Positions 1-6,294 of a stretch of DNA of 6,294 nt are shown in pieces. A model generated the notes under the pieces. That model was not told the DNA's origin and searched no databases. It was given only the letters and a program-made list of their open reading frames with translations. The translations under genes and the position numbers were made by a program. This DNA comes from a virus (lineage: Duplodnaviria > Heunggongvirae > Uroviricota > Caudoviricetes). Numbering within the stretch: position 1 is the first letter of the stretch; every line of letters begins with the position of its first letter. Location of the stretch: IMG/VR virus record IMGVR_UViG_3300011952_000016; one strand, written 5' to 3'.

Positions 1-398
1 GAGCGATTCCGCCTGTTTACCGATATCGCCATAAAGCGCGGCCAGTGATTCATCAACGCGGGTGAGCGACAGCGTAAAATCAATTTTTCGGGGTGTGCCG
101 TCTGCAAAGAAAATACTCCCTGTTTCACTCACCTTACTGATGACATACATGCCGTAAATCATGCCGGTGCCATCCAGCAACGGCCACGCCCGACCTTCCT
201 CTGCCATCAGCCTGAGCGTGGTCATCGTCAGCTTGCCGCCGGTCAGTTCGGGATAAAGCACACCGGCCAGCGTGATGTTTTCCTCGCCAACGCCGAGAAA
301 CTGGAATTTGACGGCCAGCGATAATCAGATTCACGCTGCATGGTCTGGTGTGGCAACGTCTGGCGCATAAAAACAAACATACCTAACGCGAGCATCAT
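1..398 (-). pseudogene. U: P2-type tail protein gpU, 5' portion (3' end lies beyond window start); reading frame broken near 300-305
   Basis: ATG at 398-396 sits 9 nt downstream of GGAGG (412-408) and 15 nt after the tape-measure stop (TAA 415-413). It encodes MMLALGMFVFMRQTLPHQTMQRESDYRWPSNS, then reaches TGA at 245-243 after 51 codons. The rest of a gpU-like sequence (KFQFLGVGEENITLAGVLYPELTGGKLTMTTLRLMAEEGRAWPLLDGTGMIYGMYVISKVSETGSIFFADGTPRKIDFTLSLTRVDESLAALYGDIGKQAESL) is in a different frame, open from 324 down past position 1. Confidence 0.75.
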
Positions 399-412
399 TT
401 TTCGTCACCTCC

Positions 413-2640
413 TTAACCGTCATGCATCATGCTGGCACGGGCGCGCGCACGTTTATCCCGCTCGTATTTTTCGAGCGCATCCTGTAACTGGCGGTCAAGC
501 TGTGTCCCCGGCGCAGTACCACCCGTCAGGCTGATGTGATATTCGTTTTTACTCTGGTCCACATAAGAGCGGCCAGCCGGTGCCGTAACCGGCTGATAAG
601 CCTGATAACCTGCATAAGAGCTGGTCGCCGGAATATAACCACCGGTGCCATACGTGGCGGCATGAGTTCTGGCGGCGGTCTGGTCAAGTGTGTCTGACTC
701 TTTGTTGATAACACCGAGTTTTTCCAGTACCCAGTCAATACCGCTGCGCAGTTTGTTGAACGCATTAAGCGGCAGCATCAGCGCGTCAGCCAGTGCCTGC
801 CCGAACATGACGCCCGTGTCACGGCAACGGTTCAGGGTGTCCTGGGTGGCTTTGACCGGGGCAATCAGGTTTTTAAACCACTGCCACGCGGCCTGTAACT
901 TTTCACCCAGCCAGTTAAACAGCGGCTTAAGTGGCGTGAACAGTTCCCCCACCGGCGCAAATGCCGCTTTCAGCCCTTCAACCACACCGCCAAAGAATGC
1001 GCTGACAGGCTCCCAGTATTTACGGATAAGCAACGCCCCGGCGACAATGGCAGCCACCACGGCCACAACCGGCCAGCTAATCGCACCGATGGCCGTCATA
1101 ACGGCACTACCAACCGTCGTGAAGATTGCCCCCATTGCGCCTGCTGCCGCGATAATGGCATTGATGCCGGTGATAACCGGCCAGGCTACAAGGCCAATGG
1201 CACCGATGACACCAGTCAGCGCCAGTGCACCGCCGGCAATGATGCCGATGGTTGACGCCAGTGATTTGTTTTTCTGTATCCAGCCGTCGAGTTTTAACAC
1301 ATACTTTGTGGCCGTCTGCGTGAGCTTACGCAGTGCGCCTTCCTGCTGGTCAAACAGGTCAGTCCCCACCGCCTCATAAGCGGACTGAAACTCCTTAAAG
1401 TCGCCGCCGAGGTTATCCTGCATGATATTTACCAGCTCGGCGGTCTTCCCGTCTGAGGCTTTAAACGCAGCAGTCAGTTTGTCCAGCTTTCCGGTTGAGG
1501 CGGCAGTCATCAGCACGGCGGCGGCTGAGCTGGCCTCCTCCCCGAAAATAGTTTTCATGTATTCAGCCTGCTGGGCAGTACCGAGCCGGTTTTTCTCAAA
1601 ACTGGCCTGCATTTCTTTCAGAATGGTAAATATTGGTCGGGTATTCCCCTTACTGTCTGAGGTTTTCACGCCAAGCTCTTTGAGTGCATCCCATGCTTTT
1701 CCCGTTGGTGCCTGCAGGCGACTTAACACGGCACGGCTTCCCGTCCCCNNNNNNNNNNNNNNNNNNNNNNNNNNNNNNNNNNNNNNNNNNNNNNNNNNNN
1801 NNNNNNNNNNNNNNNNNNNNNNNNNNNNNNNNNNNNNNNNNNNNNNNNNNNNNNNNNNNNNNGCGCACCGGCTGCATCATCTGCCGAGGCTGCGGTATTG
1901 TCGCCGAGCTGGCGCGCCTGCTTGCGTAGCGCGGCCATTTCGGCGGAGTCTTTTGCCACACCGAGCACAGCCTGCAATTCTGAGTTTTTCTGCGCAAACT
2001 CATAACCGGGCATCAGCAGCTTAACTCCGGCCATCGTTCCCGCAGCTGCAATCCCCACACCGGCAGCGCCCACTGAGGGCATATTTCCGGCCAGTTCCTT
2101 TCCTGCCTGATAACGCTGTTTGACTGCGTTAAGTTTTGCCTGTTGTGCACTGACACGCGCCAGCGCGTCACGCTGACGGTTAAGCTGTGCGGTGGTTTCA
2201 CTGATACGGTTTTTCAGTCCCTGCTCATCATGTGCAAGATTGCGGGTATTAATTCCCACAGCGGCCAGTTCCCGCTGCTGGCGTTTAACGGAATCTGTCA
2301 GGCGGTTATATTTCGCCTGTAAGTCCTCCGCCGCACGCTTTGCGGATTCCAGCACTTTCGCCTGAGCACGGGTCGGACGTTCGGTGTTTTTAAACTGTGT
2401 GGCAAGGGCTTCGGCTTCCTGTCGAGCCTTTTCAAGTGCATGACCAGTCACGGCGAGCTGTGCACTGGTCTTGCGGAATCCCTCAATACGGGATGCGTGA
2501 CCGTTCAGCTCGCGCAGTGATTTTTGTGTTTCCCGGATATCCCCCGACAGCGACTTGCTCGCTGTACGGATGGATTTAAACGGGCGGGATGCCTGGTCAA
2601 CAGCCCTGAGCAATACCTGTAATTTTACATTGTTACTCAT
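413..2640 (-). CDS. T: phage tail tape measure protein (P2 gpT-like), interrupted by a 114-nt N-run
   Basis: ORF 1723..2640 starts MSNNVKLQVLLRAVDQASRPF and is coiled-coil-like and rich in A/Q/R/K. ORF 413..1729 continues with a glycine/alanine-rich hydrophobic segment and the C-terminal part, ending TAA 415-413. The two pieces are separated by N 1749..1862 and are in different frames across it. The ATG at 2640-2638 overlaps the E' stop (ATGAGTAA). Confidence 0.9.
1749..1862. other. run of 114 ambiguous bases (N), a gap or masked segment inside the tape measure gene
   Basis: Directly visible in the sequence. Flanking coding frames differ by one nucleotide, so the N length is not the true length. 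Confidence 1.
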
Positions 2641-3060
2641 TCGTGTTTCCGCTTCGCCGGAGCGCCTTTTCGCGCCATGTGATGAGTTCGGTCAGGCTCA
2701 TGGGATACAGTTCTGATGGCGGCCAGTGAAATATCACTGCCACATCCGCCATCAGGTCATCGACCGAGAGATTTTTCGGAAACGTCACTGCACCGAGTTC
2801 GGCGACAAAAAACCGACCACCTTACCGGCCAGCGCCACAAGGTCAGGCAGCTCCAGCGCGGCGACCTCCTGCTCAGTCAGCATCGGTGCCGTCATGCGCG
2901 GCAGCACTTTAATCAGTGCATCGACTTCGGAGTTTGCGACCGCAGCCAGACTGACACCGCGCAGCGTCCCGGCATTGGGTTTCATCAGCGTGACCTGTTC
3001 GATAACCTGCTCACCACGCTTGACCGGATTGTCCAGGGTAATCACATTTTCTTTGTTCAT
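2633..3060 (-). CDS. E+E': gpE+E' tail assembly chaperone made by programmed -1 ribosomal frameshift (predicted 142 aa)
   Basis: Slippery heptamer T_TTT_TTG at 2812-2806 in the E frame. The -1 frame downstream is open for 57 codons (VAELGAVTFPKNLSVDDLMADVAVIFHWPPSELYPMSLTELITWREKALRRSGNTNE) and ends at TAA 2635-2633, overlapping the tape measure ATG. This is the same arrangement as lambda G/GT and the reported P2 E/E' frameshift. Confidence 0.75.
2785..3060 (-). CDS. E: tail assembly chaperone gpE (91 aa)
   Basis: ORF MNKENVITLDNPVKRGEQVIEQVTLMKPNAGTLRGVSLAAVANSEVDALIKVLPRMTAPMLTEQEVAALELPDLVALAGKVVGFLSPNSVQ with stop TGA 2787-2785. It sits between the tube and tape measure genes, as P2 E does. 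Confidence 0.9.
   Translation of the reverse strand: MNKENVITLDNPVKRGEQVIEQVTLMKPNAGTLRGVSLAAVANSEVDALIKVLPRMTAPMLTEQEVAALELPDLVALAGKVVGFLSPNSVQ
2806..2812 (-). other. -1 programmed frameshift slippery site TTTTTTG (X_XXY_YYZ)
   Basis: Minus-strand sequence GGT TTT TTG TCG at codons 83-86 of E. Classic heptamer 22 nt before the E stop. Confidence 0.75.
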
Positions 3061-3116: not shown

Positions 3117-3685
3117 TCACAGGCCGATATTGCGGCGGTGTTGCTCCAGCCGGTCGACGCCGTTCACCTTCTCAATCATGTTGATGGTGTCGATTTCGAC
3201 CAGCTCCTTACCGTCCATCGTCAGCCGGAAATAGGTGCAGACCACGGAGATTTTCGACTCGGTGTCTTCTCCCTGTTTACCCTCGCCGGTGTCGATTTCT
3301 TTCTGACGTCCACGCATGACCACTTCAACGGCCACCGTTTCGCCGGTATCGTCGCGCTGGTAAGAGCCGGTAAAGCGCAGCGGCACGGCAGTCGCACCCC
3401 ACTGCGTAAGCACCAGGTCATCNNNNNNNNNNGTACGGCATCCACACCGGTTGCGGCGTAAAGCTCCCAGATAACCGAATCCGGGAAGCCCCCGAGCGAC
3501 CACTCCATTGACAGCGCATCGTCATCAAGGCCGAGATCTACCGGGGCGCTGCCGTTCATCCCCGCACCGCGATAGTTTTCGAGCTTACGGGTCAGTTTTG
3601 GCAGCGTGACGGACTTTGCAACGCCCTGATAGCTGTAGCCGTTCAGAAAGACGTTCATTAACTTGAGTTTGCGCGGCATTGCCAT
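3117..3685 (-). CDS. FII: major tail tube protein (P2 FII-like), interrupted by a 10-nt N-run
   Basis: ATG 3685-3683 is preceded by GGAG overlapping the FI stop. The N-terminal 84 aa are MAMPRKLKLMNVFLNGYSYQGVAKSVTLPKLTRKLENYRGAGMNGSAPVDLGLDDDALSMEWSLGGFPDSVIWELYAATGVDAV. The C-terminal 101 aa (DDLVLTQWGATAVPLRFTGSYQRDDTGETVAVEVV...VDRLEQHRRNIGL) follow the N-run in another frame, ending TGA 3119-3117. Confidence 0.9.
3423..3432. other. run of 10 ambiguous bases (N) inside the tail tube gene
   Basis: Directly visible. The frame is not preserved across it (one base more or less would join the two halves). Confidence 1.
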
Positions 3686-3697
3686 CGGTCAGGCTCC

Positions 3698-4760
3698 TTA
3701 ATTGCTGTTAACCGAGGTGACCAGATTTGCCAGGTATTTATCGGTAATACGCTGGCGCAGGGTCAGGTTTTCAAGAGGAGGCACCGGGGTATAGTCGTTG
3801 AGGGTTTCCGCATCGTTGGATCCTTCGCTGAACCAGCAGGTCGCATCCACGATATAGCCGTTTGTTTTCAGCTCACGGAATTTGGCATTGATGCCGTCAA
3901 CGATGTCGCGAATCAGCGTTGCGGTGATGGGCTTGTCCACCGCCCACATGTGCGCCTCAGCCATCGTGTCGGCCAGCACCTGCGCGGTGCGGGTGTAGTT
4001 TTCAAAGAGGAACAGCGGGTCATCAGAGCAGGTACGGTTACCCCAGAAGCGGAAACCGTCGCGGCGAATCAGCGTAGTGACGCCTGACTCGTTAAGCAAG
4101 TCAGCATCGGTGCCGGACTCCTGCAAATCCCAGAATACAGAGGCGCTGATGCCGGTAACACCGTTCACCCCGACATTGGACAGCGTTTTATGCCAGCCCT
4201 GCTCCTGGTCGATTTTAGCGCGCAGCCCCAGTGCACGGGCGGTGGCATACGCGGTGACGGTGGTACTGGTGACCGTATCCCATGCGAGGAAATCCGGCCA
4301 GATGACCATCAGCTCACGCTGGCTGAAATTCTGGCGGTAGGCTTTCACCTCGGAAATGGTCTTACAGCCCCATGCGCTGATATATCCGAAAGCGCGCAGC
4401 TTCTGACAGACTGATGCCAGTGCAACAGCCACCTCTTTGGTATCCAGCCCCGGCACACCAAGAATACGCGGTTTAACACCGGTCGTCGCCGGTGCCGTCT
4501 TCCACACGTACGACAACGGTGACCGGTTTTGACTGGTCGGAGATGGCCTGCAACGATGCCGCCAGCGTGCCTTTTTTACCGGCCTTTGCAATTGCGCTCT
4601 GCACATTGGTAATCAGTACCGGTTTATTGAGGGGGAAGGTTTCGACATCCGCATCGCTGGCCGTACAGACCATGCCGACAATGGCCGTGGATACGGTGGA
4701 AATGACGCGGGTGCCGTCGTTAATCTCCAGCACCTGCACGCCGTGATGATAGTCACTCAT
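3698..4760 (-). pseudogene. FI: tail sheath protein (P2 FI-like) with a disrupted reading frame (apparent out-of-frame internal deletion)
   Basis: ORF 4473..4760 encodes the sheath N-terminus [38 protein letters not shown]...[10 protein letters not shown], then RC and a stop (TAA 4475-4473). The remainder ([40 protein letters not shown] ... [14 protein letters not shown], stop TAA 3700-3698) is in a second frame beginning at about 4477. The total span is 1063 nt, which is not a multiple of 3. RBS GGAG at 4772-4769. Confidence 0.8.
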
Positions 4761-4792
4761 CCGTTTAACTCCGTGGTTAATGGGTGAGTGGT

Positions 4793-4845
4793 ATTTTCAG
4801 TTGTGCCGGAGATGTCAGGCTATTTGTCCCGGTTGGCTAATCAAC
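4793..4845 (-). promoter_or_regulatory. putative late promoter for the FI-FII-E-T-U operon (P2 P_F equivalent): imperfect dyad GTTGATTAGCCAAC plus a -10-like GAAAAT
   Basis: Dyad at 4845-4832 lies about 50-55 nt upstream of a -10-like hexamer GAAAAT (4798-4793), which is about 33 nt upstream of the FI ATG. This geometry resembles activator-dependent P2 late promoters (element centred near -55). An exact TGT-N12-ACA match was not found. Confidence 0.3.
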
Positions 4846-4860
4846 AGCACAACCACCGGG

Positions 4861-4886
4861 AAAGAAAACGCGGGCAATCAGCCCGC
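4861..4886 (-). terminator. rho-independent terminator after the tail fibre assembly gene (end of the fibre operon)
   Basis: On the minus strand: GCGGGC-TGATT-GCCCGC hairpin (4886-4870) immediately followed by GTTTTCTTT (4869-4861), starting 6 nt after the Tfa stop (TAA 4895-4893). Confidence 0.7.
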
Positions 4887-4892
4887 CTGTGT

Positions 4893-5471
4893 TTATTGCG
4901 GTAGTTCCGGCCATTCAATATCCGGGGCATTTTCCGGCTGAACGCGATTCAGTAGCACACGGTATTTTTTCCAGTGTGTCAGGCTTAACTTTTCTTCCTC
5001 GGTAGCCATATCTAAATCGACAGCATCCTGCAGCGTGGCAATAATTTCACCTGCATATGCAATCTGCTCTTTCTTCTGAGACTCCGCCGCTCTGACAAGC
5101 GCATCACGTTCTGCATTCTCATCATTCACCCACGCATTTCCGTCCCATTTCTGATAATCCCCCTCCGGGGAAATAGCTGTCACGTCTGGAGGTAATACGC
5201 CAAGTTCAGAAATATAAATGGCTGCTCCTGTTTTCGTTTCGTAGACGGTCTTTCCGCGATGGTCTTCCATCAGTTCCCATTTCATTTCATCTGCATTGAA
5301 AACGGCTGCATAACCAGCAGGAATATCAGGTGGTGCAATATCTGTACTGTTTGCAGGCAGGCCAGTATACGGCGGAATATATGCATCACTTTCGCCAATA
5401 AACTCATTGGTTCCATTAAGTAAATTGAAAGCGCGGATAGTTTGTGCTTCTGCACTCATTCTGAAAGCCAT
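4893..5471 (-). CDS. tfa: tail fibre assembly chaperone (Tfa; P2 gene G equivalent)
   Basis: 192-aa [81 protein letters not shown]... with the conserved Tfa N-terminal region. Its ATG shares a base with the tail fibre stop (TAATG at 5473-5469). Confidence 0.9.
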
Positions 5472-6294
5472 TATGCAAGCCTCACAATATAGTTAAATGC
5501 GATGTTTTTGACGGTGTTTTCTGTATTACCTGTAGCATTAACGGTAATAGAGTGCCCGTGTGAGCCAATAGCAACCGTGTGTGAATGTGCACCAATACCA
5601 ACCGTATGATTATGTGCACCAATATCTACCGTGTGGGCATGATTCCCGGCAGCTCCTGATGTGCCATTAAACGATGGGTTGTCAAAGCCTGTTTTATTAG
5701 TATTGGCATTCCCTCTGTAAATGGTATGTGTATGGTTACCAGTGGTATTAGTGGTTTTTGTTCCGTAGTTAAACGTACTGACTGTCTTCGTCCCGTAATC
5801 AAACGAACTGGTTGTTTTCGTTCCCAAATCCGTATTTGACGCACTGGCGCTGTGAGTATGCGATTTAATCCCGTCCTGTTCCTGTGACAATACAGCACGC
5901 CCACTGGCGGGTTTGCCCTTGATTGTCCAACCGCGCATATCCGGAATAACACCAGAAGGATAGGCTATAGCCAGTTTCGGATATGCTGCCTTATCAAACG
6001 TCTGCCCCTGCATAATTGCATAGCCTGCAGGTGGTGTATCTGATGGCCACGGCAGCGGAACACCTGGCGGAAACGCTTCAATATTTGCCGAGCCGTCAAA
6101 TTTTACGCCGTTAATTGTCCTTGCTGTTTTCAGCTTTGTTGCTGTAGCCGCATTGCCGGACAGTTCGCCTGAAAGACCACCGCTGAATGTCTGTTTCGCC
6201 GCCCATGTCTGAGCTTCGTCAATAATTGGCACACGTCTTGTCGTGATCGTGCGGCTTCCCGGATTTCCTGAAATACGCACCATAAAAAAGCGGT
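5471..6294 (-). CDS. tail fibre protein, C-terminal (distal, receptor-binding) part; 5' end probably beyond the window
   Basis: Frame is open from the window edge (no stop in 6294-6284). The first ATG (6283) has no obvious RBS (T6 run upstream). Contains the fibre motif [21 protein letters not shown], a collar-like segment ([37 protein letters not shown]), GTKT repeats and HxH repeats. Stop TAA 5473-5471. Confidence 0.85.
5540..5647 (-). repeat. four tandem imperfect 27-bp repeats encoding 9-aa HxH units (GNHAHTVDI / GAHNHTVGI / GAHSHTVAI / GSHGHSITV) in the tail fibre tip
   Basis: Verified by codon-by-codon translation of 5647-5540. HxH repeats of this kind coordinate metal ions in the T4 long and short tail fibre tips. 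Confidence 0.85.
5735..5824 (-). repeat. three tandem imperfect 30-bp repeats encoding GTKT-type 10-aa units ([10 protein letters not shown] / [10 protein letters not shown] / [10 protein letters not shown]) in the tail fibre
   Basis: Translation of 5824-5735. The nucleotide periodicity is visible directly. Confidence 0.75.

Follow-up and report, generated by a model that had tools for sequence, protein, structure and literature searches.

Disruption of the tail sheath gene in a P2-like tail operon, with one deletion edge at a recurrent breakpoint

The tail sheath gene FI in the window (the whole stretch of DNA analysed here, 6,294 nt from IMG/VR record IMGVR_UViG_3300011952_000016) is split between two reading frames by a 104-nt deletion, the right edge of which lies at GGTAA/CCGGTG (P2 18,028–18,035; slashes mark breaks), a recurrent breakpoint of P2-like prophages. 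The window is probably the tail-gene block of a defective P2-like (Peduovirus) prophage. A disrupted prophage tail gene is in itself ordinary, as either an inactivated prophage gene or a flaw of draft assembly; the wider point is that more than 20 independent rearrangements, from unrelated assemblies of Escherichia coli and Shigella, end at a single 6-nt spot within FI.

The tail operon and its lesions

A megablast search with the window returned approximately 96% identical, collinear sequence from bacteriophage P2, many Peduovirus phages and around 1,600 complete E. coli chromosomes. Every long open reading frame (ORF) of the window belongs to a P2-type tail gene on the minus strand (H, G, FI, FII, E/E′, T or U). 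FI has the neighbours of a P2 gpFI-type sheath gene, with G upstream and FII, E/E′, T and U downstream. The features are as follows.

5471..6294, minus strand: H, tail fibre, 3′ part; 12-nt in-frame deletion at 5696/5695
4893..5471, minus strand: G, tail fibre assembly; intact (ORF list and relatives)
4761..4892, minus strand: G–FI intergenic region; no cargo gene; terminator-like hairpin at 4870–4886, after G
3698..4760, minus strand: FI, tail sheath; two fragments in different frames
4473..4760, minus strand: FI 5′ fragment; M1 to D93, two out-of-frame codons (R, C), then TAA (ORF list and sequence)
4481..4484, minus strand: junction of the 104-nt deletion, GACG(AC)/CGGTG (alignments)
3698..4480, minus strand: FI 3′ fragment; G129 to N396 and stop; frame reachable by a +1 shift
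3797..3799, minus strand: junction of the 24-nt deletion, CTCA(A)/CGACTAT; break at 3798/3797
3117..3685, minus strand: FII, tail tube; split by a 10-N scaffold gap (3423–3432)
2633..3060, minus strand: E and E′, tail assembly chaperones; intact
413..2640, minus strand: T, tape measure; 114-N gap (1749–1862)
1..398, minus strand: U, tail protein, 5′ part; 25-nt frameshifting deletion at 305/304

The G–FI intergenic region, where P2-like phages are known to carry cargo and defence genes at a hot spot (Z/fun in P2), is collinear with that of prophage L003, which likewise has no cargo gene there. The slippery run GGTTTTTTG of the known E/E′ −1 frameshift is intact at 2814–2806.

The 5′ ORF of FI reads MSDYHH...VEDGTGDD, then R and C, then a TAA stop at 4475–4473, and it aligns with nt 1–279 of FI from P2 and S164. 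The sheath frame resumes at 4480 with GGT GTT AAA (G129 V130 K131) and ends in ...SVNSN at the stop at 3700–3698; the 3′ ORF as listed starts earlier, at the ATG at 4606, and its first part is out of frame. There is thus no continuous ORF of about 396 codons. A sequence-only reading of the window had already placed the split at about 4477–4484 and the stop at 4475–4473, put the total span of FI at 1,063 nt and gave a length of about 396 amino acids for P2 FI. All of these statements hold: FI occupies 3698–4760 in the window, compared with 1,191 nt (396 amino acids) in P2 and in ten intact relatives.

That reading had also proposed that roughly 125 nt were lost at the junction, possibly between GAC microhomologies, and had suggested alignment to P2 FI and intact homologues to size the missing segment. 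A 1,201-nt query corresponds to 1,329 nt in every top match, so that 128 nt are missing from the window. Three-way alignment with P2 and S164, with the placement also checked against the closest collinear E. coli prophage (AVS0578, L003), divides the loss into two blocks: exactly 104 nt at the junction (FI nt 280–383, frameshifting) and 24 nt near the 3′ end (FI nt 1068–1091, in frame). Sequence has therefore been lost where it was suspected, but less of it, and the alignment gives a 2-nt AC microhomology in place of GAC; the earlier interpretation had the right type of lesion but not the right particulars. The larger deletion removes codons E94–V127 and 2 nt of T128, and the window reads GACGACCGGTGTT across the junction. 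The smaller one converts K356–Y364 (KAGKLYIDY) to N, in a segment whose aligned counterpart in the pyocin sheath 3J9Q is the conserved GKvY...T.VPP stretch, and its junction occurs in none of 906 matching E. coli records. In other respects FI resembles the gene for P2 gpFI (NP_046778): the 1,063 nt that remain are approximately 96% identical at the nucleotide level, with the same gene order (H-G-FI-FII-E/E′-T-U), start codon and ribosome binding site; the P2 gene, unlike that of the window, is a single ORF that contains both missing segments. The block from FI to U measures 5,140 nt, without any indel, in all ten intact relatives.

Intact FI carries three Pfam domains (PF22671, PF04984 and PF17482), and its alignment to the R-type pyocin sheath PA0622 (PDB 3J9Q; E = 1e-63) covers the whole protein. 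The two fragments match these three domains jointly. Only PF22671 (Gp18_domIII_N; E = 1.2e-14) is retained by the 5′ fragment; the 3′ fragment matches PF17482 and positions 17–168 of the 168-position PF04984 profile, the first 16 positions of which are missing, and the C-terminal domain is without its conserved GK.Y stretch, which falls in the 24-nt deletion. Because FI lies in two frames, meets a stop at 4475–4473 and lacks 128 nt, it is, judged by its sequence, a pseudogene of the gpFI sheath family and not a functional member. The suggestion that the loss would inactivate FI is supported by the sequence: the frame is shifted and conserved parts of the sheath are gone, which leaves no way to make an intact sheath protein.

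FI could conceivably still function, either through a programmed +1 frameshift at ...GAC CGG TGT TAA A..., where a shift at the TGT-TAA-A stop could, from the sequence, reach the downstream frame, or as a two-piece sheath. We found no slippery motif at 4473–4490, however, and such a product would still lack 34 conserved residues together with 8 from the C-terminal domain, which is conserved too. A two-frame or shortened FI was found neither among the ten intact relatives, all of which have 396 codons in a single frame, nor among 1,625 E. coli records, 1,617 of which are continuous across the site. The absence of the motif, the missing residues and the single-frame relatives lead us to reject a programmed frameshift or functional split gene, the chance of which we consider minute; a functional sheath seems very unlikely to arise from this FI sequence.

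Outside FI, the window differs from prophage L003 of E. coli AVS0578, its closest collinear intact relative, by further lesions. U has lost 25 nt at 305/304, with a 2-nt CC microhomology and a lost segment centred on TCGGTAA; the resulting junction occurs in one piece in none of 5,426 complete E. coli genomes, and the matches listed all span the extra 25 nt. H has lost 12 nt in frame at 5696/5695, with a lost segment that ends in ACCGGT, and the same deletion is absent from six close relatives, one of them 98.6% identical. These two deletions are probably further lesions of the same prophage. FI and U are both frameshifted in the record; if these deletions are real, as the recurrent breakpoint described below supports, at least one essential gene would be inactivated, as in a defective prophage. 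All four deletions (104, 24, 25 and 12 nt) are private to the record, and a gpD-based scan of species-representative genomes yielded 80 loci, none with the lesions of the window or with a masked stretch.

Substitutions private to the window comprise 19 synonymous and 8 non-synonymous changes, a ratio like that in intact phages; two of the eight non-synonymous changes sit at the contig end by the 10-N gap. Private substitutions cluster only at that gap and not at any of the four deletions, and the window has no 1-nt indels or nonsense codons relative to its relatives. The base substitutions thus still look selected, and the pattern is the product of neither long neutral decay nor random base error. 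Base substitutions outnumber indels by approximately 4 to 1 in E. coli mutation-accumulation lines (147 versus 37; PMC5289635), and for this reason four deletions of at least 12 nt, by themselves, would be odd for slow decay.

A breakpoint shared with other P2-like prophages

Searching a collection of 5.8 billion proteins with the FI 3′ ORF, we found chimeric sheath proteins in which the FI part starts exactly at T128 (/TGVKPRILG) behind at least seven different 5′ partners: gpA, gpV, gpI (at two sites), a holin, antisense P and antisense Q. At the DNA level these chimaeras are large internal deletions of P2-like prophages. The FI-side ends of seven such deletions map to P2 18,028–18,033 (.../CCGGTGTTAAACC), and their left ends are scattered over genes A, V, I (twice), P, Q and Y (P2 28,329; 10,685; 12,444; 2,117; 608; 12,619; and 6,935). 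Four of the seven come from Logan assemblies and three from NCBI assemblies, among which is a 4.93-Mb contig; prophages with the breakpoint edge are L094–L096, L098–L101 and L106.

The reverse search, with FI residues 1–127 as the query and with listed matches biased towards short proteins, uncovered at least 15 protein classes that keep FI residues 1–127/128 (...LLAAESV(T)) and then continue elsewhere: in gpD (three sites), Ogr, FII, T, later parts of FI (approximately residues 275, 338 and 355) or unidentified sequence. One of the 15 classes sits in a 4.97-Mb Shigella flexneri contig. Junctions elsewhere in FI amounted to only eight classes among the matches listed for this query. The pile-up at one codon does not follow from the choice of query, because in either search a protein with a longer part of FI would receive an equal score.

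At least 22 other independent rearrangements, counted as junction classes, therefore start or stop at FI codon 127/128 (TCGGTAA/CCGGTG) in P2-like prophages of E. coli and Shigella; their partners come from every part of the phage genome, and the breakpoint is used in both directions (proteins P0006–P0028 and P0121–P0141). At its 104-nt junction the window keeps the edge (AC)CGGTG, the same as that kept at the recurrent breakpoint, and this edge falls within P2 18,030–18,035. Such events are rare per genome, as the site is continuous in 1,617 of 1,625 complete-genome E. coli records and lacks continuity in the other 8; they came to light only in the 5.8-billion-protein collection. A recent survey describes P2-like regions as likely defective and reports defective P2-like elements and P2 pseudogenes to be common; it names no preferred site (PMC13586616). 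We found no description of a recurrent FI breakpoint in the literature searched.

The defective prophages most like the window (for example L094, L096, L101 and L106, from E. coli and Shigella) combine conserved late genes with one or more internal deletions, share the FI breakpoint and have deletions with 1–6 nt of microhomology. Their deletions span 2.4–23 kb and remove whole genes, whereas those of the window span 12–104 nt and leave every gene present as fragments. Four prophages (L096, L101, L103 and L106) carry at least two internal deletions among otherwise well-conserved genes, and the multi-deletion pattern of the window therefore has natural precedents.

A real deletion or an assembly error

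Two runs of N, at 1749–1862 (114 N) and 3423–3432 (10 N), mark the window as part of a scaffolded draft. The 114 N in T stand in place of 336 nt in all relatives and leave the two halves of T mutually out of frame. At the 10-N gap, the contig on the left ends with a P2-type FII allele (...GGTTATCTGGGAGCTTTACGCCGCAACCGGTGTGGATGCCGT), and the contig on the right opens with 83 nt (3422–3340) of a divergent allele of the same homologous segment, an 82/83 match to the tube gene of IMG/VR UViG 3300031418_000773, before passing to P2-type FII within a shared 23-nt stretch. As one locus cannot hold both versions of FII, the read set must have included at least two P2-like sequences. To judge by the two alleles, the scaffold is chimeric at this gap; the N gaps, and the FII and T splits that result from them, are technical. 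The joined FII alleles and the 114 N for 336 nt are signs of misassembly in the same scaffold that are independent of FI.

The FI lesion itself might be technical too, in which case the genome would hold an intact FI and the gaps of 104, 24, 25 and 12 nt would stem from misjoined contigs or wrong gap closing in a repeat-confounded region. The lesion has two N gaps less than 3 kb away, one of them flanked by contig ends that carry different alleles of the same FII segment; six lesions with missing sequence follow each other at intervals of 0.4–1.6 kb; all four deletions are private to the record; and the substitution pattern is that of selected genes, with small indels absent. On the lesion, scaffold and substitution evidence, with the recurrent breakpoint set aside, we leaned towards an artefact. 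The 104-nt junction, however, has a microhomology of only 2 nt, on which k-mer and overlap assemblers do not normally join. Its left and right flanks have the same closest relatives, which places both in one allele lineage and rules out an allele switch (a chimeric join) at this point. Furthermore, its right end coincides with the breakpoint of at least 22 independent rearrangements, some of them on near-complete chromosomes, and we estimate that an artefactual end would fall within ±3 nt of that breakpoint by chance in about 1% of cases. Split genes of draft assemblies share with the window an N-gap scaffold, a chimeric contig end and record-private lesions, but the junction in the window is inside a contig, has same-lineage flanks and uses a breakpoint that recurs in unrelated assemblies.

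Because the right end lies within a few bases of that recurrent breakpoint, we favour, with moderate confidence, the reading that the deletion is real and that the window comes from a defective P2-like prophage with multiple deletions, recovered in an imperfect scaffold; an artefact throughout appears rather unlikely, although it keeps appreciable weight. An intermediate case, in which the 104-nt deletion is real and some or all of the smaller ones (24, 25 and 12 nt) are assembly errors, or the reverse, strikes us as improbable. It would suit the clearly imperfect scaffold and the fact that the 104-nt junction is the only one with an external counterpart, but sequence quality does not separate the four junctions, and private substitutions are not clustered near them.

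Junction-spanning 101-nt queries for the 104-, 24- and 25-nt deletions matched none of 5,426 complete E. coli genomes in one piece, and the 30-mer of the 104-nt junction was not found in species-representative genomes, IMG/VR viral contigs or JGI metagenome contigs. No exact protein products of the FI 5′ fragment or of G are on record. For annotation, the disruption of FI, U, FII and T needs to be marked, and it would be wrong to list the element among the P2-like phages that are intact and inducible.

Candidate causes of the breakpoint

We hypothesize that the deletion arose from a DNA double-strand break inside GGTAA/CCGGTG (FI nt 378–384), that approximately 100 nt were then lost on the upstream side of the break and that the ends were rejoined through the 2-nt microhomology. 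This would have shifted the FI frame so that translation stops after 95 codons, with a further 24 nt lost in frame near the 3′ end. Without a sheath, the element would be expected to make no contractile tails.

Tentatively, and with less confidence than we attach to the deletion itself, we propose that FI nt 378–384 (TCGGTAA/CCGGTG) in P2-like phages may be a sequence-specific hot spot of DNA breakage and a recurrent route to defective prophages. A nuclease or a structure-dependent process would cut there repeatedly, end joining would give deletions in either direction, and the 104-nt deletion of the window would be a small example. If such a cutting or fragile-site mechanism is true, it would help to explain how very common P2-like prophages become disabled, and the site is directly testable. 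Two overlapping palindromes, GGTAACC and ACCGGT, lie at FI nt 378–384. A cut of the BstEII/Eco91I type (G^GTNACC) would fit the 5-nt spread of the hot-spot junctions, and one further junction falls at GGTCACC (T81); such a cut does not explain the partner ends or the three remaining GGTNACC sites of FI.

Three other causes were considered and found no support. The crossover sites of the tail-fibre invertase (TTCTCCCAAACC-AA-...) are unlike the FI site. The nick site of the P2 origin (CTCG^GAGTCC) and FI just upstream of the hot spot share the 7-mer CGGAGTC, but nicking by gpA at a pseudo-origin is a misfit, as every junction keeps or loses sequence 6–10 nt downstream of the CGGAGTC position. 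A simple repeat is not supported either, as CGGTAACCGG is unique in P2.

Several junctions elsewhere fall directly after CCGGT: at FI K62, in gene J at P2 11,546, in gpD (...CCGGTG/AAGG) and at the 12-nt deletion of the window. The association of a CCGGT/CGGTAA motif with junctions is a weaker, post hoc signal and is suggestive only; CCGG occurs in P2 about once per 130 nt.

Other rearrangements of FI were also observed. A second recurrent junction lies at K62 (GCCGGT/AAAAAAGG; P2 approximately 17,835; prophages L103–L105, proteins P0010–P0012), where FI is fused to an invertase, to gpO and to a tail fibre assembly protein. Two sheath proteins from NCBI E. coli assemblies (P0001 and P0009) contain internal tandem duplications of 43 and 29 amino acids. 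A recurrent FI deletion from T128 to T354 (P0125/P0138), with an AACC microhomology, is present in one chromosome of Shigella flexneri and one contig of E. coli, and the 24-nt deletion of the window (3797–3802) starts 5–6 nt from its right end.
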